Positions 2,979 to 59,106 of a DNA stretch of 64,000 nucleotides are shown here, one piece after another. The stretch is from Pseudomonadota bacterium (GTDB lineage: Bacteria > Pseudomonadota > Gammaproteobacteria > SURF-13). The position numbers and the translations under genes are program-made. The stretch's first letter is position 1. Each line of letters opens with the position of its first letter. The stretch spans positions 7,463-71,462 of the forward strand of contig JBFLZV010000004.1 of assembly GCA_040756035.1 (NCBI GenBank). The letters are read 5' to 3'. Under the pieces are notes generated by a model. That model was not told the origin of the DNA and made no database searches. It saw only the letters and a list, made by a program, of their open reading frames with translations.

Positions 2979-4307
2979 TTGTTCGAACGCCCCCGCAGCG
3001 GCGAGCGCGCGGTTCTGGTACACCTGTACTTCCCCAAGGAAGGTGAGCGTGAGGAACTGGCCGAGTTGCACGAACTCGCCCGTTCCGCCGGCGCCACGGT
3101 AACGGCGACCGTCACCGGCACGCGCAAAGCGCCCGATCCCAAGTATTTCGCAGGCAGCGGCAAGGCGGAGGAAATCCGCGCCGTGGTGGCGCGCGAGCGG
3201 GCGGAACTGGTGCTGTTCAACCATCCCCTTACGCCGGCCCAAGAGCGCAACCTCGAGCGCCTGTTGCAATGCCGCGTGCTGGACCGCACCGGGTTGATAC
3301 TCGACATCTTCGCGCAGCGCGCCAGCACCTACGAGGGTAAGCTGCAAGTGGAGTTGGCGCAGTTGCAGCACGTTGCCACGCGCTTGGTGCGCGGCTGGAC
3401 GCACTTGGAACGGCAAAAGGGTGGTATCGGCCTGCGCGGACCGGGTGAAACGCAATTGGAAACCGACCGACGTTTGATCGGCGCGCGCATCAAGCAAATC
3501 AACAAGCGCCTGGAAAAGGTGCGCACGCAGCGTCGCCAAGGCCGCCGCGCGCGGCGCAAGGCCGAGTTGTTCAGTGTCTCGCTGGTGGGCTACACCAACA
3601 CCGGGAAATCGACGCTGTTCAACCGCCTCACCGGCGCATCGGTGTACGCTGCCAATCAATTATTCGCCACGCTCGATCCCACCGTGCGCCGCGTCGAGCT
3701 GGGTCCCGGCGCGTCGCTGACCGTGGCCGACACCGTGGGGTTCATCCGCCATTTGCCGCATGACTTGGTGGCGTCGTTCCGTTCCACGCTGGAAGAAACG
3801 CGCGAGGCCGACCTGCTGTTGCACGTCATCGACGCGCACGACGCCAACCGCCATGCGCACTGCGAGCAAGTCAATCAAGTATTACGCGAAATCGGCGCGC
3901 AGGACGTGCCGCAAATCGAGATTTACAATAAAATTGATCTTTTGCCGGACACCGCGCCACACATGGACGTGCCAGTGTCGCGGGAGGCAGGATGCCGGGA
4001 GCGACCGCCGCACATGGACGTGCCAGTGTCGCGGGAGGGCCGCTCCAGGCTCCTGCCTTCACGCGGCACTGCCCCGTCCCTGGAGGGCGCAGGATGCCGG
4101 GAGCGACCGCCGCACATGGAGCGCGACGAGCAGGGCCGCGCGCGGCGCGTGTGGCTATCCGCGGTCACCGGCGCGGGAATCGATTTGCTGCGCCAGGCGT
4201 TACGTGAACACATGACAGAGGGCGTAAAGCAGGACGCTGAGGTAAATGAAAAACCGTCCCCGCTTGTTTATCCCGCGGCAAGTGAGCCGCAATGCGGGAC
4301 GGCGTGA
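2979..4307 (+). CDS. hflX: Ribosome-splitting GTPase HflX with a 51-aa repeat-derived insertion and an atypical short C-terminus
   Basis: G1 GYTNTGKS, G2 FATLD, G3 DTVG, G4 NKID, G5 WLSA; N-terminal QVELAQL and GPGETQLE motifs. TTG start. Confidence 0.95.
   Translation: MFERPRSGERAVLVHLYFPKEGEREELAELHELARSAGATVTATVTGTRKAPDPKYFAGSGKAEEIRAVVARERAELVLFNHPLTPAQERNLERLLQCRVLDRTGLILDIFAQRASTYEGKLQVELAQLQHVATRLVRGWTHLERQKGGIGLRGPGETQLETDRRLIGARIKQINKRLEKVRTQRRQGRRARRKAELFSVSLVGYTNTGKSTLFNRLTGASVYAANQLFATLDPTVRRVELGPGASLTVADTVGFIRHLPHDLVASFRSTLEETREADLLLHVIDAHDANRHAHCEQVNQVLREIGAQDVPQIEIYNKIDLLPDTAPHMDVPVSREAGCRERPPHMDVPVSREGRSRLLPSRGTAPSLEGAGCRERPPHMERDEQGRARRVWLSAVTGAGIDLLRQALREHMTEGVKQDAEVNEKPSPLVYPAASEPQCGTA
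3960..4120. repeat. In-frame palindromic repeat insertion inside hflX
   Basis: CACATGGA occurs at 3960, 4011 and 4113 (spacings 51 and 102 bp). gcaggatgccgggagcgaccgccg and cacatggacgtgccagtgtcgcgggag each occur twice. The central 51 bp is a diverged inverted copy. Confidence 0.9.
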
Positions 4308-4325
4308 ATTAAAGATATTAAAAAT

Positions 4326-4361
4326 AACATAAATAAAGCCCATCTTTATTTATGTTCTTTT
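4326..4361 (+). terminator. AT-rich hairpin followed by a T run downstream of hflX (possible terminator)
   Basis: Perfect 13-bp inverted repeat aacataaataaag / ctttatttatgtt with a 5-nt loop, then cttttt. The stem is AT-rich, so termination strength is doubtful. Confidence 0.4.
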
Positions 4362-4375
4362 TATATTACCATTTT

Positions 4376-4503
4376 CACTCACCCCCACTCTGTCCCCTTT
4401 GCGCTATGCTATCCATGCGCCGCGCAAAGTCCAGCCTGGCCATCGTGGCCCGGCGTTCCGCAACTTCGTTGCTTCACCCCTTGAAGGGGGCGGGAACGTA
4501 GCA
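4376..4503 (+). mobile_element. MITE/REP-like hairpin element, copy A
   Basis: Aligns by eye with 15507-15592 (ctgtcccctt...aaagtcc...) and with 15816-15861 (gcaac-N3-gttgcttcacccc...gggg...cgtagc). Confidence 0.7.
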
Positions 4504-4598
4504 TTTCGTGAGGCTTACTTAATGAAGTTCTTAGTAATTTTGCGTTACAGTGTATTACTATTGTGTGTCTATCTCTAACTTACGCAACGGAGTAACTG

Positions 4599-5789
4599 AT
4601 GGCTTGGAATGAACCGGGCGGCGCCAGGGACAAAGACCCCTGGGGTGGCCGCAAGAGCACTGAGCAAGGCCCTCCCGACCTGGACGAGTTGCTGCGCAAG
4701 TTGCAGCAGCGTCTGCGCGGTCTATTCGGCGGCAAGCGCCCGGAGGGTCCGGACGCCAAGCCGCTACGCCCGGGTTTCGGCCTGCTCGCCGCCATCGTGG
4801 TGATCGTGTGGCTGTTGTCGGGCATTTATATCGTCGATCCGGCGGAGCGCGGCGTGGTGCAGCGTTTCGGCGCCTACGCGGCCACCACGCTGCCCGGCCC
4901 GCATTGGCATATCCCGTATCCCATCGAGAAGGTGAACATCGTCAACGTCGATCAGATTCGCAACGTGGAAATCGGTTTCCGCTCCGACGGTTTGAAGCAA
5001 ACCGTGGAGGCGGTGCCGCGCGAGGCGCTGATGCTTACGCAAGACGAAAATATCGTCGACGTGCGTTTCGCCGTGCAGTATCACGTCAAGGACGCGCGCG
5101 ATTATTTGTTCAACGTGCGTGAGCCCGATTTCACGCTGCTACAAGCCACCGAGAGCGCGGTGCGCGAGATCATCGGCAAGAGTTCCATGGACTTCGTGCT
5201 CACCGAGGGGCGCGGCCAGGTGGAGGATACGTCGCGTGAAATGATCCAAAAAATTCTGGATCGTTACCGTTCCGGATTGCAGGTGACGAAAGTGAACATG
5301 CAAAACGCGCAGCCGCCCGAAGAGGTGCAGGACGCCTTCCAGGACGCGGTGCGCGCCATCGCCGACGAGCAGCGCTTGATAAACGAGGCCGAGACCTACG
5401 CCAACGGCGTCATCCCCGCGGCGCGCGGCGAGGCGGCGCGGCGCTTGGCCGAGGCGAATGCATACAAGGCGCAGGTCGTTGCGCAGGCGCAAGGTGAAGC
5501 AAGCCGCTTTACGCAAGTTTTGGAGCAATATCGCAACGCCCCCGACGTGACGCGCGAGCGTTTGTATCTGGAGGCCATGGAGGCGGTGCTTTCCAATACC
5601 GACAAGATCATGGTGGATATCAAGAGCGGCAATAATTTGCTCTACCTGCCCTTGGACCGCCTCGCGCAGCCGGCGCAGCGCGCGCCGGAGCCTGCGCCCG
5701 AGGCGCCCGCCGCCAGTGCGGAGCAAGTCGCGGCGGAGCCGAAGCAAGACACGCTGCGTGATCGTGGACGCAGCCGAGGAGAACGCTGA
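4599..5789 (+). CDS. hflK: FtsH protease modulator HflK
   Basis: MAWNEPG...DPWG...GPPDLDEL N-terminus, SPFH domain (MLTQDENIV), LLYLPLD C-terminus. Confidence 0.97.
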   Translation: MAWNEPGGARDKDPWGGRKSTEQGPPDLDELLRKLQQRLRGLFGGKRPEGPDAKPLRPGFGLLAAIVVIVWLLSGIYIVDPAERGVVQRFGAYAATTLPGPHWHIPYPIEKVNIVNVDQIRNVEIGFRSDGLKQTVEAVPREALMLTQDENIVDVRFAVQYHVKDARDYLFNVREPDFTLLQATESAVREIIGKSSMDFVLTEGRGQVEDTSREMIQKILDRYRSGLQVTKVNMQNAQPPEEVQDAFQDAVRAIADEQRLINEAETYANGVIPAARGEAARRLAEANAYKAQVVAQAQGEASRFTQVLEQYRNAPDVTRERLYLEAMEAVLSNTDKIMVDIKSGNNLLYLPLDRLAQPAQRAPEPAPEAPAASAEQVAAEPKQDTLRDRGRSRGER

Positions 5790-6916: not shown

Positions 6917-7031
6917 CTCACGCAAAGACGCCAAGTTCGTAAAGATTTAAAACTTAAAAGCCGTGAAATATCTCGCCATGATTAAGCCAATATTTTTTAT
7001 ATTATTTTGCGTCTTTGCGCCTTTGCGTGAG
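6917..7031. repeat. Paired inverted ACGCAAAG-type arms around an AT-rich core
   Basis: ctcacgcaaagacgccaag (6917-6935) ... tttgcgtctttgcgcctttgcgtgag (7006-7031). Confidence 0.85.
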
Positions 7032-7055
7032 ATGTTTTTTTTCGAGTCATAACCC

Positions 7056-9545: not shown

Positions 9546-9570
9546 AGGTTTTTTTAAAATTCAAAAAATC

Positions 9571-9694
9571 TAACGCAAAGACGTAAATAAAAAAGTAACA
9601 AGTTGCAAGTAACAAGATAAAAATTAATTTCTATACCTTTTCTTGGAACTTGTCACTTGTTACTTGGAACCGCTTTTTTGGCGTCTTTGCGTTG
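9571..9694. repeat. Nested element: outer ACGCAAAG arms enclosing an inverted heptamer array
   Basis: Outer aacgcaaagacg (9572) / cgtctttgcgtt (to 9693). Inner aagtaac-aagttgc-aagtaac-aag / cttggaa-cttgtca-cttgtta-ctt. Confidence 0.85.
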
Positions 9695-9705
9695 GGTTCT
9701 TTTAA

Positions 9706-10413
9706 TCAGTTCGGCAACCCTTCCACCGAGCGAATCAAAATAGTAAATTCATCGCCGTCCTTGCCGCGCTCTTCGATGCGTACCGGTAAATAAGATAAGC
9801 TCGGCGCGCACCACAGCGTGGTGATTTTTTGATCAGGCGCCATAATGCGCTGCACCTTCAATGTTTTGATCTCCCCCAAGGGCGTGTCCACGTTTTCCTC
9901 GCCGTCCACCTTGAAATGGTAGGTTTTGAATTTGTGCGTGTCCACCATCGGGTAGGTCAGTTCGCGCTTACCCTGCTGTAAATCGTACATCATGGCGAGC
10001 TGGTAGAGCAGTTGGTCGTAGGTGCGCGGCTCGATGGCGATGTTCGAGGTTTCGCCCGCGCTGGTGATCTTGGCGACGCCGTGCTTGTCGTCGAACGTCA
10101 CACTGATGCGACGCTCTTTCTTGCCGCCGGTTTTTTCGTAGCTGTATTGCAGCGGTTTGATTTGGTTGTTTTGATAGGTCCACACGCTGCGCTCGGCGAT
10201 CTGATCCTTCACAAACGCCGCCAGCAATCCGCCCGGCTGCATGGTGGAGGCGAACACGAATTTACCGTCTTCATCCGGCGCGAGTGAGCGGTGCACCTCG
10301 CCCAGCGTGATGTTGCCCTTGCTCATGACATAGCGCGCGCTGAAGGGCTGCGGCGCCGCGCAGGCTGTATAGGTAATGAATAATAATGCTACGCCGGCAA
10401 TCAAGCGGTGCAT
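9706..10413 (-). CDS. DUF3108-family exported protein
   Basis: Signal peptide; YDQLLYQLAMMYDL, ETPLG-like DTPLGEIKTL, TLWCAPSLSYLPVRI; usual neighbour of purN. Confidence 0.75.
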   Translation of the reverse strand: MHRLIAGVALLFITYTACAAPQPFSARYVMSKGNITLGEVHRSLAPDEDGKFVFASTMQPGGLLAAFVKDQIAERSVWTYQNNQIKPLQYSYEKTGGKKERRISVTFDDKHGVAKITSAGETSNIAIEPRTYDQLLYQLAMMYDLQQGKRELTYPMVDTHKFKTYHFKVDGEENVDTPLGEIKTLKVQRIMAPDQKITTLWCAPSLSYLPVRIEERGKDGDEFTILIRSVEGLPN

Positions 10414-15442: not shown

Positions 15443-15861
15443 TTACTCAGGAGTCATAAAATAAGGCGACAAACCTTTATGAGATGACTCCTGAGCAAGC
15501 CCTGTTCACTCTACTCTCACCCTGTCCCCTTTTACGCTACGCCATCCTGCTCCGCATAAAAGTCCGGCCAAGCCCTCCATGGCTTGGCGGTCATGATGCA
15601 CATCCATGTGCATCACCCTACGGGCCGCCTAACGGCGGCGCCGTTTGGCAATCCTGCCAAACGGTCATGATGCACATCCATGTGCATCACCCTACGGGCC
15701 GCCTAACGGCGGCGCCGTTTGGCAATCCTGCCCAACGGTCATGATGCACATCCGTGTGCATCACCCTACGGGCCGCCTAACGGCGGCGCCGTTTGGCAAT
15801 CCTGCCAAACGGTCGGCAACCTCGTTGCTTCACCCCTAAACAGGGGGACGGGGACGTAGCT
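15443..15861 (+). mobile_element. MITE/REP-like element, copy B (composite, contains the tandem array)
   Basis: 5' inverted-repeat cap ttactcaggagtcat...atgactcctgagcaa (15443-15498). Body ends ccctgtcccc ... ggggacgggg (imperfect inverted repeat). Homologous to copies at 4376 and 35381. Confidence 0.8.
15588..15814 (+). repeat. Three tandem 74-bp units made of stacked hairpins
   Basis: cggtc recurs at 15588, 15662, 15736 and 15810. The units differ by only about one base each, and there are no unique spacers. Confidence 0.95.
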
Positions 15862-15895
15862 GAAATATAGTCTCACTTACTGACTTATGAGTAAC

Positions 15896-16204
15896 TCACT
15901 TGGCCGACGGCGGGGGCTGTGTTTGCAGGGCCTTGGCGCGCGCCTTCACGGCCTCGTTCTTAGCCGCAACGGCGTGCTCGCGCGCCTGGTCGTAGCGGCC
16001 GGCGTCCAAGGCCTGCTTGGCCTCGTCCAGCAGCCGCTCGGCGTTGTTAAAGTTGTCCGGCGCCTGTGTGGCCGCACCCGTCTCGCGCGCGGCAGCGAGC
16101 GCCTGGCGTGCGTCGCTCATCTCTTGCGTCGGAATGCTCGCGCACCCAATAGCCAAGCTCGCCGTCAGAACCAGCAGCTTGCAGTAGTACGCGGGGCGCT
16201 TCAT
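15896..16204 (-). CDS. DUF4398-like helical lipoprotein
   Basis: Lipobox LAIG-C, then PTQEMSDARQALAAAR...AERLLDEAKQAL...YDQAREHA. ATG at 16204. Confidence 0.75.
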   Translation of the reverse strand: MKRPAYYCKLLVLTASLAIGCASIPTQEMSDARQALAAARETGAATQAPDNFNNAERLLDEAKQALDAGRYDQAREHAVAAKNEAVKARAKALQTQPPPSAK

Positions 16205-20704: not shown

Positions 20705-20722
20705 TTACCTATATTTAACAAC

Positions 20723-20796
20723 CCAACGCAAAGACGCAAAGACGCCAAGAAATTCGATTTATATGAAATCTTAGCGTCTTAGCGTCTTCGCGTTGG
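20723..20796. repeat. Paired inverted ACGCAAAG-type arms between ilvH and ilvC
   Basis: ccaacgcaaagacgcaaagacgccaaga ... tcttagcgtcttagcgtcttcgcgttgg around an 18-bp AT-rich core. Confidence 0.85.
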
Positions 20797-20808
20797 ATTT
20801 TTTGTGAA

Positions 20809-21300
20809 TTAAACCTTCAAACTTTTTTCGCCGCGCGCGATGCCCGATACGCCGGAGCGCACCACTTCCATGATGGACTTGCGGTCCAGCGCCTCGATGA
20901 AGCCGTCCAATTTTTCACCGGTGCCGGTGAGCTCGATGACGTAGGTGCTGTCCGTGACGTCGATGATGTGGCCGCGGAAAATGTCCGCCATGCGCTTGAT
21001 CTCGTCGCGCGCATCATTCACCGCCTTGACCTTGATGAGCATCATCTCGCGCTCGATGTGCGGACCTTCAGTGAGGTCGAGCAGCTTGACCACGTCGATC
21101 AATTTGTTCAATTGTTTGATGATCTGCTCGATGATGTCGTCGGTGCCGTGCGTGACCAGCGTAAGGCGCGACAGCGAAGGGTCCTCGGTGGGCGCCACGG
21201 TGAGCGATTCGATATTATAGCCGCGCGCGGAAAACAAGCCGGCCACGCGCGACAAGGCGCCCGACTCATTTTCCATGAGTATTGAAATGATGTGACGCAT
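20809..21300 (-). CDS. ilvH: Acetolactate synthase small subunit
   Basis: MRHIISILMENESGALSRVAGLFSARGYNIESL ACT domain; KQLNKLIDV. Confidence 0.96.
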   Translation of the reverse strand: MRHIISILMENESGALSRVAGLFSARGYNIESLTVAPTEDPSLSRLTLVTHGTDDIIEQIIKQLNKLIDVVKLLDLTEGPHIEREMMLIKVKAVNDARDEIKRMADIFRGHIIDVTDSTYVIELTGTGEKLDGFIEALDRKSIMEVVRSGVSGIARGEKSLKV

Positions 21301-21308
21301 AGTTTAAT

Positions 21309-21341
21309 AAAATCCAACGCAAAGACGCGAAGACGCGAAGA
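21309..21341. repeat. Solo ACGCAAAG-type arm between ilvI and ilvH
   Basis: aaaatccaacgcaaagacgcgaagacgcgaaga matches the reverse complement of 20769-20801 at 30/33 positions. Confidence 0.8.
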
Positions 21342-21376
21342 AAATCAATGAGGTTAGGAGCATTTTGCCGGGTGCT

Positions 21377-35312: not shown

Positions 35313-35380
35313 TGCGACAAAGTTGTATCGGAGCGGGAGGTGTTACATGGAGATCGGTAAGTAAGGCTACACTTCACGCT

Positions 35381-35527
35381 GTCGCCAAGCCATGGAGAGC
35401 TTGGCTGGATTTTTACGCGGAGCGGATAACGTGGCGTAAAGGGGGCAGGGTGGGGTAGAGTAATCAGGGTTTTTACTCAGGGGTCATAGCATAAGGTTTC
35501 TTGCCTTGCTTTATGACCCCTGAGTAA
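35381..35527 (-). mobile_element. MITE/REP-like element, copy C
   Basis: Its reverse complement aligns with 15443-15592. Perfect 16-bp inverted repeat ttactcaggggtcata / tatgacccctgagtaa (35473-35527) plus the hairpin gccaagc...gcttggc. Confidence 0.85.
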
Positions 35528-35573
35528 TTTGCTACAATGCGTTTTGTTTCCACATAAGTTGCACAGGTGAATT

Positions 35574-46018: not shown

Positions 46019-46028
46019 GGTGAAATGC

Positions 46029-46160
46029 CTCACGCAAAGGCGCAAAGACGCAGAGAGCGCAGATTTAAAATTCCCAGAAAGCCAGTAATGGCCGATTTAG
46101 TCCACGCATGGTTCATGATGCTTGAAACATTTTTATTGCGTCTTTGCGCCTTTGCGTGAG
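46029..46160. repeat. Perfect 24-bp inverted arms around an AT-rich core inside the ccm operon
   Basis: ctcacgcaaaggcgcaaagacgca (46029-46052) / tgcgtctttgcgcctttgcgtgag (46137-46160). Confidence 0.92.
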
Positions 46161-46215
46161 ATGAGTTTGTGTGGGATTACCATCTTGGCATGACCGTATT
46201 TTATGAGGTGAATAA

Positions 46216-50081: not shown

Positions 50082-50091
50082 ACGGCGCAGC

Positions 50092-50222
50092 CTCACGCAA
50101 AGGCGCCAAGACGCAAAGACTATAAAATAAAAGCGAGAAAGAAAATTTGTAATTTGGGGCTTTATGGGAAATGTTTTTCCCGCTCATTAATTGATTTGGT
50201 GAATTTTGCGTCTTTGCGTGAG
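50092..50222. repeat. Paired inverted ACGCAAAG-type arms at the ccmI/yfgM junction
   Basis: ctcacgcaaaggcgccaagacgcaaag ... tttgcgtctttgcgtgag. Confidence 0.85.
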
Positions 50223-50240
50223 TTAATTTAAAGGAATTCC

Positions 50241-50897: not shown

Positions 50898-52066
50898 TGA
50901 ACAGGAGTTGGCAAGCCGGACTGGCGGCGCTGGCGCTACTCGGCATCGGCGGTTGCACCACGGTCAACGATTTTTTCGCCGGCAAGGATAACTCCGATCC
51001 GCCTGCGCCGCTGACGGCGCTGCAATCCGGCGTGGCCGTGCAAACGTTGTGGTCCGCGCGCGTCGGCGCCGGCAGCGACAAACAATATATCAAACTGTCG
51101 CCCATCGTAGTGGGCGGCAAGGCGTTCGCCGCCGACCGCAAGGGGCGCGTCAGCGCCTACGACGCCGCCGGCGGACAACAGTTGTGGAGCGCGGACACCA
51201 AGGCGCCCATCTCCGGCGGGCCGGGCAACGGCGAGGGTTTGGTGTTGGTCGGCACCAGCGAGGCCGAGGTGCTGGCGCTGGACGAGAACACCGGCAAGGA
51301 GGTATGGCGCGCGCGTGTTTCCAGCGAGGTGTTGTCCGCGCCGCGCGCCGCGCAAGGCCGCGTGGTGGTGCGCACCATCGACGGTAAACTGTTCGGCTTG
51401 AACGCCGCGGACGGCAAGCGCGTGTGGGTATACGAGCAAACGGTGCCGGCGCTCACGCTGCGCGCCACCAGCGCCCCGTTGTTGGCGGATGATAAAGTCA
51501 TCGGCGGTTTCGCCAGCAGCAAACTCGTCGCGCTGAGTTTGAGCGAAGGCAAGTTGCTGTGGGAAACCGCCGTCGCCGAGCCGCGCGGGCGCACCGAATT
51601 GGAACGCCTGGTCGATATCAGCGGCGAGCCGCAAGCGCAGGACGGCGTCGTGTACGTGGCGAGCTTCCAAGGGCGTATCGCGGCGGTGGAAATGGACAGC
51701 GGACGCCTGCTGTGGGCGCGCGACATGTCCTCGTATTCCGGCGTCGGCGTCGACGAGAGCATGGTGTATGTCACCGACGCTCAAAGTCACGTGCTGGCCC
51801 TGGATCGCCGCGACGGACGCACGCTCTGGAAGCAGGATAAACTGCACGCGCGCGGCGTCACCGCGCCCGCCGCTTACGGCGATTACGTTGTGGTCGGCGA
51901 TTTCGAAGGTTATCTGCACTGGCTGGCGCGCGACGACGGCAGCTTCGCGGCGCGCGTGCGCGTCGACGACGCCGGCATCATCGCCGCGCCCACCGTCAGT
52001 GACGATACGCTTTACGTGAGCGGCAAGGGCGGCGTATTGGCCGCTTTTAAGGCAGATACAAGATAA
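50897..52066 (+). CDS. bamB: Outer membrane assembly lipoprotein BamB
   Basis: Lipobox IGGC, PQQ-like propeller repeats, [20 protein letters not shown]. Confidence 0.94.
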
Positions 52067-52172
52067 AGGGGAAAGGGGAAAGGGAAAAGGGAAAAGACCT
52101 TACCTGCATTCCCCCTTTTCCCTTGTATCTTTTCCCTTTCCCCTTGTCTCCTGTACCTTTGCCCTTTTCTCT
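52054..52172. repeat. Inverted heptamer array between bamB and der
   Basis: agataca-agataaa-ggggaaa-ggggaaa-gggaaaa... (overlaps the bamB stop) versus ...ttttccc-ttgtatc-ttttt-ccctttc-cccttgt... Confidence 0.85.
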
Positions 52173-52178
52173 GATTCT

Positions 52179-53570
52179 ATGAAACCTGTCATCGCCCTAG
52201 TGGGCCGGCCCAACGTCGGTAAATCCACGCTGTTCAACCGGCTCACGCAAACGCGCGAGGCGCTGGTCGCCGATCAGCCGGGACTCACGCGCGACCGCAA
52301 ATACGGTTCAGGCAAAATCGGCGACCGGCCGTATATCGTGGTGGACACCGGCGGCCTGACCGGAACCGAGGAAGGACTGGAGGCCCTGGTCGCCGAGCAG
52401 ACGCTGCTCGCGGTGCGCGAGGCCGACGTGGTGCTGTTTCTGGTGGACGGACGCGACGGCCTGACGCCCGCCGATGAAAAGATCGCCGCGCAACTGCGTC
52501 CTTACGGCAAAAAAGTTTTTTTAGTGGTGAATAAAATGGAAGGCCGCGACGCCGCGCTCGGCGGCGCGGAATTTTACGCACTGGGTTTGGGTGCGCCGCA
52601 CGCGATTTCCTCCGCGCACGGCCAGGGCGTGACGCAGCTGATGGATGCCGTGCTGCCGGCATTGCCGGCATCGGAAGAAGAAGAGAAAGAGGAAGAGGCG
52701 CACGGCATCAAAATCGCCGTGATCGGACGCCCCAACGTCGGCAAATCCACACTGGTCAACCGCATGCTCGGCGAAGAGCGCGTGCTCGCCTTCGACCAGC
52801 CGGGCACCACGCGCGACAGCATCTACATTCCCTTCGAGCGCAAGCGGCGCCGCTATACGCTCATCGACACCGCCGGCGTGCGCCGCCGCGGCAAAGTCAC
52901 CGAAACCATCGAGAAATTCAGCGTCATCAAAACCCTGCAAGCCGTGGAAGACGCGCACGTGGTCATCCTGGTGCTCGACGCGCAGCAAGGCGTTACCGAT
53001 CAGGACGCCGGATTGCTGGGATTCGTTCTGGAGAGCGGCCGCGCGCTGGTGATCGTGGTCAACAAATGGGACAGCGTGGATCTCGAACAGCGCAGCCGCG
53101 TCAAACAGGAACTCGACCGCAAACTTTCGTTTCTCAATTTCGCCAAAATATACTTTATCTCGGCGTTGCGCGGCACGCGCGTCGCCGAATTGTTCACCGC
53201 GCTGGAGCGCGCCTACGCCGCGGCCAACAAAAAACTTTCCACGCCGCAGTTGACGCGCATCCTGGAGCAAGCCGTCGCCGCTCACGCACCGCCGCTGGTG
53301 GCGGGACGGCGCATCAAGCTGCGTTACGCGCATCAGGGCGGACACAATCCGCCGCTGGTGGTGGTGCACGGCAATCAAACCGAGTCGGTGCCGGATACCT
53401 ACCGGCGCTACCTCGCCAATAGCTTTCGTGAAGCGCTGAAGCTGGAGGGCACGCCGGTGCGCGTGGAATTCAAGAGCGGCGCGAATCCCTACCAAGGCCG
53501 CAAGAACGTGCTGACCGAACGCCAGCGCGCGAAGCGCAAGCGTTTAATCAAGCATATAAAAAAGAAGTAA
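52179..53570 (+). CDS. der: Ribosome biogenesis GTPase Der (EngA)
   Basis: Two G domains (GRPNVGKST twice, DTGG / DTAG, NKME / NKWD) and a KH-like C-terminus. Confidence 0.98.
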
Positions 53571-53650
53571 TAAGTTGCAAGTTACAAGTGACAAGAAAAA
53601 ACGCAAATTTTGTTTCATCTTGTAACTTGCAACTTGTTATTTGTAACTGT
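53564..53650. repeat. Inverted heptamer array filling the convergent der/mlaA gap
   Basis: aagtaat-aagttgc-aagttac-aagtgac-aag (first unit contains the der stop) versus cttgtaa-cttgcaa-cttgtta-tttgtaa-ct. Confidence 0.88.
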
Positions 53651-58965: not shown

Positions 58966-59106
58966 AGTAGGGAAAAGGGAAAAGATACAAGTAACAGGGC
59001 AAAGGGAAAAGATACAAGGGAAAAGGGAGAAGACAAGGGAGATTCTTTCCTTTTCCCTTTTCCCTTTTCCCTTTTCCCTTTGCCCTTTGTCCTTTGTCCT
59101 TTGTTC
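58966..59106. repeat. Long inverted heptamer array between guaB and guaA
   Basis: agggaaa-agggaaa-agataca-agtaaca-gggcaaa... versus ttccctt x4, tgccctt, tgtcctt x2. Confidence 0.92.

Follow-up and report, generated by a model that had tools for sequence, protein, structure and literature searches.

The question raised by this 64,000-nt stretch of a gammaproteobacterial contig (GenBank JBFLZV010000004.1, positions 7,463 to 71,462; hereafter the window) is how the GTPase encoded by its hflX gene came to carry 51 additional residues between motifs G4 and G5. In our judgement, the 153-nt block that encodes them is probably made up of three copies of an interspersed, non-autonomous repeat 51 nt long, which resembles in kind the repetitive extragenic palindromes (REPs) and Rickettsia palindromic elements (RPEs) and is tolerated as a surface loop of HflX. 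The block belongs to a dispersed family with definite boundaries and lies in frame; the same hflX site was occupied independently in a second lineage, the internal nesting site recurred in other genomes, and the stems of the element covaried.

The 153-nt block in hflX and its insertion site

The block was located at positions 3955–4107 in the register of the element. The register 3960–4112, used in a sequence-only reading of the same letters, was equally valid because a 13-nt direct repeat, CGCC(A/G)CACATGGA, flanked the block. Two repeats were identified, a 33-nt repeat (3955–3987 versus 4006–4038; 32/33 nt, 97% identical) and an exact 32-nt repeat (3987–4018 and 4089–4120; 32/32), and CACATGGA occurred at 3960, 4011 and 4113. 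Copy 1 of the element was intact (51 nt, 3955–4005, + strand; covariance-model match 3952–4009, 70 bits), with its ends taken from the information profile of the family. Its hairpin 1 was CAC-AUGGAC-GUG, and its hairpin 2 was GUCGC-GGGA-GGCA-GGA-UGCC-GGGA-GCGAC. Copy 2 was split into a 5' part (element positions −25 to +7; 4006–4038, + strand; 33-nt repeat and partial model match 4010–4067) and a 3' part (+8 to +25; 4090–4107, + strand; 32-nt repeat and partial model match 4076–4107). Copy 3 was inverted (4039–4089, − strand; model match 4035–4092 on the − strand, 40.7 bits, E 2e-8) and nested inside copy 2 between +7 and +8. It was approximately 80% like the consensus and had retained 51 nt through one insertion and one deletion. 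The native hflX sequence CGCCGCACATGGA (Pro-His-Met-Glu codons; 4108–4120, + strand) followed the block and matched the first 13 nt of the element. The sequence-only reading had described a 153-bp in-frame insert between G4 and G5 built as unit, half unit, inverted unit and half unit. The repeat positions and the covariance model agreed with the insert, its repeat layout and its parts, which are better described as one unit followed by a second unit with an inverted unit nested in it.

The coding sequence of hflX (2979–4307, + strand, 442 aa) was assigned from the open reading frame (ORF) list, the match to the E. coli HflX structure and the ortholog alignment. The best structural match was E. 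coli HflX (PDB 7YLA/5ADY, E 7.8e-142), whose residues 1–330 were aligned with window residues 1–330 and residues 326–367 with 377–418. The approximately 50 surplus residues were placed between NKID (G4) and the strand carrying SA (G5), bounded by ...NKIDMLEDFEPRID and RDEENKPNRVWLSA. The E. coli sequence given in the sequence-only reading differed from the actual one at a single residue. The N-terminal, linker and G domains were intact and colinear with characterised HflX, and the G1–G5 motifs were present (GYTNTGKST, DTVGF, NKID, SA), which identifies the protein as an HflX over these domains. Its C-terminal domain (about the last 60 aa) was gone, with homology ending near 4214, and no remnant of this domain was found in the window by tblastn. 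The protein stopped 24 residues past the G domain, and an AT-rich stretch (GC 0.26–0.48) and a different intergenic repeat took over at 4215–4600. The genes miaA and hfq were upstream of hflX, and hflK and hflC were downstream.

The predicted peptides of the insert were DVPVSREAGCRERPPHMDVPVSR and LLPSRGTAPSLEGAGCR. In the AlphaFold model of the window HflX (mean predicted local distance difference test, pLDDT, of 68.7; 17 aligned sequences), the G domain was modelled normally, and the flanking strands (312–317, 379–382 and 388–392) were modelled as in HflX. Residues 325–374 had a pLDDT of approximately 30 and no secondary structure. This model bears on the question of the sequence-only reading whether the insert is a surface loop: the 51 residues probably form one, disordered, with the fold of the G domain preserved, and we infer that the loop is functionally tolerated.

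The distance between NKxD and xWxSA was evaluated in the 120 best HflX homologs, 105 of which could be scored. The distance was 22–24 aa in 103 homologs, 40 aa in two and 74 aa in the window. The gap expected by the sequence-only reading was therefore present, with 103 of the 105 scorable close orthologs and E. coli HflX lacking the insert. No record with exactly the HflX of the window was found. The first 40-aa homolog (P0001, Logan contig L002) had a single unit and otherwise matched the DNA of the window at 100% identity across 1,227 nt. The second (P0002, contig L001) belonged to another clade (77% aa identity in conserved columns) and had one unit, which was missing from five of its relatives at 93–98% aa identity (P0014, P0015 and P0017–19). 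The nearest relatives of the window HflX, P0011 and P0003, were also without the unit. The occupied alleles and the empty alleles (L003, L124 and L125) differed by exactly 51 nt at the same phosphodiester. The junctions read GACACCG, 51 nt and CGCCGCACATGGAG in the window and GACGCCG, 51 nt and TGCCACGGCTGGAG in L001. At the empty sites, GACGCCG was joined directly to GGCCGCGGCTGGAG in L003, GACACAA to GGCCACGGCTGGAG in L124 and ...GCG to CGCCGCACATTGAG in L125. The identity between L001 and L124 over hflX was 96.3%. The simplest reading of these alleles is that two independent insertions occurred at one hflX site, one in the window lineage and the other in that of L001. The counterpart of the native CGCCGCACATGGA in L125, the nearest empty relative, reads GCGCCGCACATTGAGCGCGAC. 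Since the native CGCCGCACAT(T/G)GAG is present in this empty allele, the 12/13 match to the 5' end of the element is older than the insertion.

A dispersed 51-nt family and its junctions

The spread of the element was explored by an exact scan with the 24-mer core GCGGGAGGCAGGATGCCGGGAGCG over one genome per species. At least 120 loci from 86 assemblies were obtained, almost all from Gammaproteobacteria, and the copies elsewhere for which the sequence-only reading had proposed a search were thus found. The carriers included Lysobacter, Thermomonas, Arenimonas, Rhodanobacter, Rudaea, Sedimenticola, Thiohalophilus, Acidiferrobacterales, Sulfurifustaceae, Gilvimarinus, Porticoccaceae, Halomonas, Fluviicoccus, a Solemya symbiont and Nitrosomonas eutropha; Lysobacter koreensis, Arenimonas soli, Halomonas casei and Fluviicoccus keumensis are cultured carriers. 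Typical copies were also seen in contigs L006, L060, L088 and L089, whose bin labels were Halobacteria archaeon, Klebsiella pneumoniae, Ca. Acidiferrales and Phycisphaerae; their DNA may be gammaproteobacterial and wrongly binned. With a covariance model based on 109 copies, 133 matches were obtained in 690 kb of fetched loci, approximately 30 of which had no exact core; hence, some genomes carry several copies per 8 kb. Copies occurred in both orientations, and tandem copies were present in mazG (L085), in L121 and in the window. No second copy of the 51-mer was found in the window at ≤3 mismatches. The element was not matched in phage records and not found in complete E. coli genomes; it was carried by 1 of 2.9 million viral contigs and, on plasmids, by a Lonsdalea primase gene as one variant copy. 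A metagenome scan for the window-specific left junction of the hflX block gave 0 matches.

The information content fell to background outside −25 to +26, flank positions held ≤0.25 bit, and the flanks were unrelated. From the nested copies together with the alleles of hflX, the inserted length was fixed at 51 nt (17 codons), running from −25 to +25. The consensus was YGAYG-YRCA-NGGAN-GYR-C-NARTG-TCGC-GGGA-GGCA-GGA-TGCC-GGGA-GCGA-C. In the family alignment A2, the 5' trinucleotide was linked to the base after hairpin 1 (−23/−22 and −7; z 8–14), in the combinations GAC–T, GAT–A or GAT–G, GCC–C and GCT–G. This linkage was not simple base pairing and may be a subfamily mark or a non-canonical contact. 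The core had no match in the searchable literature by string search, and the encoded peptides were not in the supplements of Di Nocera et al. (2013; PMC3733652) or its table of intragenic REPs; by these searches, no prior description of this 51-nt family was found. A protein-database search with an 83-aa composite of five reading frames returned 16 candidates, all of them small hypothetical ORFs, and matches of 11–17 aa are too short for significance against 1.8 billion sequences.

Approximately 76 of 126 copies were located in long ORFs. Ten genic hosts were checked against Pfam (DnaE, DnaG, class I ribonucleotide reductase (RNR), HsdM, GcvT, Tgt, MnmA, MazG, a plasmid-type primase and an aminotransferase), and in five of them (DnaE, DnaG, GcvT, Tgt and MnmA) the domain span was approximately 11–18 aa beyond the profile length. 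The length of the element is a multiple of three, and four of its six frames are open. Frame +1 (peptide DVQGCTSVAGGRMPGAT) was used by 41 copies, frame +2, which is that of hflX (peptide ..DV.VSREAGCRERP), by 5, and the antisense frames by 29. Frame +0, which usually contains a stop in the common CTAG/CTAA variants, held 1 of 76 copies. This uneven use of frames, with +0 nearly empty, indicates translation of the copies and filtering by selection. In two genomes (L122, ~3950–4030; L095, ~1440–1520), the element also adjoined the start codons of murC and aroK on their 5' side, reading GGGAGCGACC immediately before AUG. Because the element abuts the ATG there, its 3' GGGAG stands at Shine-Dalgarno distance; an ATG followed the element directly in 4 of 118 copies. 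Upstream of an intact tRNA gene, L121 (4200–4603) and L070 (60–320, − strand) contained tRNA-Leu and tRNA-Ser pseudo-copies, respectively, each followed by an element; ARAGORN called no tRNA at these pseudo-copies. The idea of a tRNA intron was rejected, as the two elements lie in truncated 5' pseudo-copies and not in functional tRNAs.

No regular target duplication was seen, and most copies had none at all. A run of ≥4 nt in the right flank that matched the 5' end of the element was present in 11 of 118 copies, compared with 3.7 expected from the ends of other copies and 0.5 from random DNA. In the subfamily with a CGCC 5' end, to which both hflX inserts belong, 7 of 10 copies were followed directly by CGCC, TGCC or CGCG. 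A comparison over 18 nt of flank gave no general mimicry of the 5' end (5.5 versus 5.3 matches). The sequence-only reading had claimed that a chance match to the loop motif of the element was the target of its insertion. This claim is only partly supported: the native 12/13 match in L125 and the CGCC-type flanks speak for it, whereas the L001 site was similar at only ~7–8 of 13 positions and few copies family-wide had a flank match. A guide–target model was rejected, since the mutual information between element and flank never exceeded z ~5, compared with z 14–41 for internal pairs. An inverted copy was nested at the same internal bond as in the window, between GGGAGG and CAGGATGCC, in five other genomes (L007, L021, L047, L054 and L072).

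Fold of the element and the match of its loops to CsrA sites

The element was found to form two adjacent stem-loops on one strand, with the stem bases coinciding with its ends. Because its first and last nucleotides sit at these bases, the folded strand brings the host flanks together. Covariation was evident at −20:−9 (UA 67, CG 37), −19:−10 (AU 77, GC 15, CG 7) and −2:+24 (UA 73, CG 29), and a mutual-information scan added −25:−5 (CG 71, UA 31). Paired cells made up 95.9%, compared with 17–42% when the partners were slid. The observed covariation was reached by 0 of 500 shuffles. Related copies inflate such figures, but the slid controls speak for a real secondary structure of the element. 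In a strand test for RNA versus DNA, G.T was not clearly above A.C without the biased pair (12 versus 7, not significant). As single-stranded DNA, the hflX block folded into one long hairpin of copy 1 with the inverted copy (−56 kcal/mol, z −3.1). The stems varied and the loops were invariant, which is the reverse of classical REPs.

The invariant loops resembled the recognition motif of CsrA/RsmE. Hairpin 1 consisted of a 4-bp stem and a hexaloop and fitted CANGGANG in 104 of 108 distinct copies. The 10-mer (A/U)CANGGANG(U/A) was fitted by 74 of 108 copies, and RUACARGGAUGU, the exact optimum from systematic evolution of ligands by exponential enrichment (SELEX), by 22 of 108; the modal hairpin was this same sequence. 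The poorly conserved loop positions, −16 and −12, were the two N positions of the motif. At the hairpin 2 apex, compensating changes occurred in diverged copies (GGCA/UGCC, GCGCA/UGCGC, GUACA/UGUAC, AGCA/UGCU and GACA/AGTC), and CA(N)GGANG was kept throughout. CAGGAUG is the repeat of CsrB. Each element had two GGA motifs 25 nt apart and carried the CsrA/RsmA motif in the loop of a short hairpin, as expected of such a site by sequence and structure. A CsrA SELEX/RsmE consensus has been published, the preferred ligand has its GGA in a loop of 6 nt on a stem of ≤4 bp, and the CsrA dimer bridges sites 10–63 nt apart (PMC4347634, PMC6849547, PMC7652899).

These matches raise the possibility, which we hold to be real but the weaker one, that the element is primarily an RNA module with two predicted high-affinity CsrA/RsmA sites per sense copy. 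An insertion would then connect the transcript of its host gene (in this case hflX-hflKC) to the Csr/Rsm network or add to CsrA titration, and sponge RNA genes of the Rsm/Csr type may be the origin of the family or may maintain it. The motif fits, the compensated hairpin 2 apex and the published ligand preferences all favour such a role, as do the copies directly before the AUG of murC and aroK. On the other side, csrA was not in the window, and the strand test gave no clear excess of G.T. Orientation was also unbiased. Among genic copies, 33 were sense and 22 antisense, and between co-directional genes, 5 were sense and 8 antisense, with no sense-strand bias. Hence, most dispersed copies would not be individually selectable as mRNA sites. 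For the same reason, the mobile-element reading was retained as the main one, and CsrA recognition is most likely a constraint on the active source copies; CsrA binding at the predicted sites is a strong lead.

A related intergenic array of 3 × 74 nt (15588–15814, − strand) was identified by the tandem repeat finder and matched by the model at 13.7–14.6 bits per unit. Each unit contained the hairpin-1 module (GAUGCACAUGGAUGUGCAUC), a hairpin with a CAGGAUU loop and a third hairpin; the array folded with −45.2 kcal/mol (z −4.9). The sequence-only reading had connected an octamer of the hflX insert with this 15.6-kb array. The octamer TCCATGTG, the reverse complement of CACATGGA, was present in the first two units, the third reading TCCGTGTG, and the connection extended to the whole hairpin-1 module. 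The array hairpin GAUGCACAUGGAUGUGCA was the same module as that of the element (model 14.5 bits at each of the three units), and ACANGGANGT occurred 6 times in the window versus 0.73 expected. The best Rfam match of the array was RsmW (29.3 bits, E 0.0055), which favours the RNA module and lies under the gathering score of 52. Across the whole window, no Rfam family reached its gathering score, including the Csr/Rsm sponges of clan CL00106, and the hflX insert gave nothing past chance miRNA-like hairpins.

The window contained three homologous intergenic elements of ~150–400 nt (15450–15900, − strand; 35340–35540, + strand; 4375–4560), one of which hosts the 74-nt array. They had several GGA-loop hairpins (e.g., GCCAAGCC-AUGGAG-GGCUUGGC) and a terminal hairpin, and may be Rsm-like small RNA (sRNA) genes or another repeat family. 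In L064 (640–1030), four GGA-loop hairpins in two repeated units (+ strand) and one element (− strand) lay beside a bidirectional terminator, and in these units the hairpin 2 apex itself was swapped for a hairpin-1-type module. Other AT-rich intergenic repeat families of the GC-rich window were runs of ACGCAAAGACGC-type octamers, AAGGGAAAAGGG palindromes and AAGTAACAAGTTGCAAG palindromes. They were located at 7002–7039, 9559–9716, 20720–20804, 21293–21349, 46026–46168, 50089–50239, 52055–52170, 53565–53642 and 58966–59103.

In a tentative extension that joins mobility and CsrA recognition, the element could be a module that is mobile and self-contained and binds CsrA/RsmA in a bidentate manner. 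Its source copies would be constrained by membership in a sponge RNA or by CsrA-aided propagation, and its dispersal would seed CsrA sites in many gammaproteobacterial transcripts, sometimes together with a Shine-Dalgarno sequence and an AUG. Such a module would be a vehicle for rewiring a global post-transcriptional regulon. If the match between loops and CsrA is functional, the element would be the first mobile element known with binding sites for a global RNA regulator; in the literature searched, no paper was found that links CsrA motifs with interspersed repeats.

Mode of insertion and relation to known repeats

In the preferred reading, the element would be copied as an exact 51-nt unit in either orientation without regular target duplication, and it would also insert into itself and amplify in tandem. 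In hflX, one copy would have landed in the loop between G4 (NKID) and G5 (SA); this copy would have been duplicated, and an inverted copy would then have been nested in the second unit. Movement might proceed via an intermediate, a single strand in its folded form, on which a factor would act in trans. Copies in permissive protein loops would persist as 17-aa insertions because the length is a multiple of three and four of the six frames are open.

Several observations weigh against this reading. No transposase family recurred among the ORFs within 0.5–2.5 kb of 120 loci; a Pfam scan of 150 flanking ORFs gave no recurrent transposase, and when 1,723 neighbouring ORFs were clustered all against all, the only families to emerge were GGDEF/EAL, ABC and dehydrogenases. 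Mobility was deduced from the distribution of the copies. In the window, the nested inverted copy had diverged further than the unit into which it is set, whereas the reverse was seen in the five other nested cases; its diverged core had 0 exact matches in the JGI metagenome scan. The pattern of fixed loops and variable stems fits an RNA–protein recognition element better than a transposase-binding hairpin. Finally, since the C-terminal domain has been lost, hflX could be under relaxed constraint, which might account in part for the tolerated insert.

That no transposase was found nearby also bears on an explanation that dispenses with one, in which replication gives rise to copies through template switching or microhomology-mediated recombination. 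The nascent strand would anneal to an ectopic, often tandem, copy and return after one 51-nt period. The 13-nt direct repeat flanking the hflX insert, whose right-hand copy is native host sequence, speaks for such a process, and partial second copies of 4–20 nt that follow several elements (e.g., L043, L018, L063 and L058) and the tandem arrays in L085, L121 and the window point the same way. However, approximately 90% of the copies had no flank homology of ≥4 nt, the boundaries were identical across unrelated contexts, nesting took place at one precise internal phosphodiester, and the second hflX insertion was at a low-homology site. This explanation is accordingly judged rather unlikely.

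It is very improbable that assembly produced the three-unit arrangement artificially from a locus with a single unit. The L002 contig of one sample does have a single-unit allele that is otherwise identical, and the repeats of 32–33 nt are near typical k-mer sizes. However, no assembler could invent the inverted copy, whose sequence is unique. Logan contigs from three independent samples begin at 4091, a branch expected for tandem units: the 31-mer graph splits where ...CACATGGA precedes both C and G, with the next unit and the gene as its two continuations. One upstream contig stops at 4016, which fits a node with two predecessors. A deletion between the exact 32-nt repeats would turn the window allele into precisely the L002 allele, and the number of units in hflX appears to be polymorphic. 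The organism of the window is present in the samples ERR2851138, SRR32167789/90 and SRR28401805/09.

Escape of the insert from translation, through ribosome bypass between repeated CACAUGGA take-off and landing sites or through RNA processing, has even less in its favour. The same codons do recur 51 nt apart, and the fold brings the ends of the element together, but the insert is open in frame, and the family-wide scarcity of copies in frame +0 speaks against it. The idea that the extra 51 aa are a native lineage-specific HflX segment grown by simple tandem duplication can be dismissed almost entirely: two of the three units do repeat directly in tandem, but the same 51 nt occur at more than 120 unrelated loci, the closest orthologs have no insert, and one unit is inverted.

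The mobile-element reading has practical consequences. The family explains many 17-aa "indels" in gammaproteobacterial proteins, which concerns annotation, and the element causes assembly breaks because its core is approximately 31 nt long. The repeated insertions at the same sites point to an unrecognised, fairly precise insertion mechanism.

Compared with known systems, the element is the same kind of phenomenon as documented intragenic REPs and RPEs, and it lacks the defining features of GTAG REPs, CGTC REPs, MITEs (miniature transposable elements with inverted repeats) and IS200/IS605-type elements. Its ends, CGACG... and ...GCGAC, are directly and not inversely similar, and it has no regular duplication, unlike MITEs. 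With the minimal elements of IS200/IS605 (PATEs), it shares the absence of terminal inverted repeats and target duplication, a hairpin near each end, orientation-specific ends and a folded form that juxtaposes the ends. However, those elements abut a fixed target tetra- or pentanucleotide, whereas the flanks of the element are nearly free of information, and no TnpA was found near its copies. CsrB/RsmZ-type sRNAs have similar units, i.e., short GGA-loop hairpins, one SELEX/RsmE-like and the other CAGGAUG-like, at a spacing suited to the dimer; those sponges are single genes, whereas the element is dispersed as 51-nt units in both directions inside coding regions.

CGTC-tagged REPs have 8–9-bp stems starting with A-T and a CCA tail, are mostly alphaproteobacterial, are without a known dedicated transposase and are sometimes intragenic (PMC3733652). 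The commonest subfamily of the element begins with YGACG, so that its complement ends with CGTCR. However, its stems are 4–5 bp long, closed by G-C and topped by a 6-nt loop, and the tag varies (GACG, GATG, GCCG and GCTG), with the CGTC complement confined to the GACG subfamily. With RAYT-mobilised REPs and REPINs, the element shares GC-rich imperfect interspersed palindromes, inverted pairs, some genic copies and compensated stems. Intragenic REPs are documented, notably in replication and repair genes, with compensatory changes that keep the stems (Di Nocera et al., 2013; PMC3733652). It differs in being two hairpins of fixed total length with invariant loops, in having no GTAG at either end on either strand (consensus YGAYG...NARTG...GCGAC), and in that no RAYT was found next to copies among the ORFs near the 120 loci. 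Its inverted pairs are nested at a fixed internal site and not adjacent as in REPIN doublets, the window pair forming the long hairpin described above.

The analogy with RPEs drawn in the sequence-only reading held in that an in-frame palindromic repeat has created new protein sequence at a site that is empty in close relatives. Both are short interspersed palindromes that lie in frame in housekeeping genes and are translated as surface segments, and RPEs are not known to have a linked transposase. RPEs are ~100–150 bp long and restricted to Rickettsia. In this comparison, which is by behaviour only, the element differs in its length of 51 nt, its presence in several gammaproteobacterial orders and its CsrA-motif loops. 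It is set apart from the in-frame palindromes known in Rickettsia and among some REPs by its fixed 17-codon unit and a core conserved over several orders, by its position inside essential enzymes (DnaE, DnaG, RNR, MnmA, Tgt and HflX), and by its insertion twice at the same hflX position and six times at the same internal position of its own copy.

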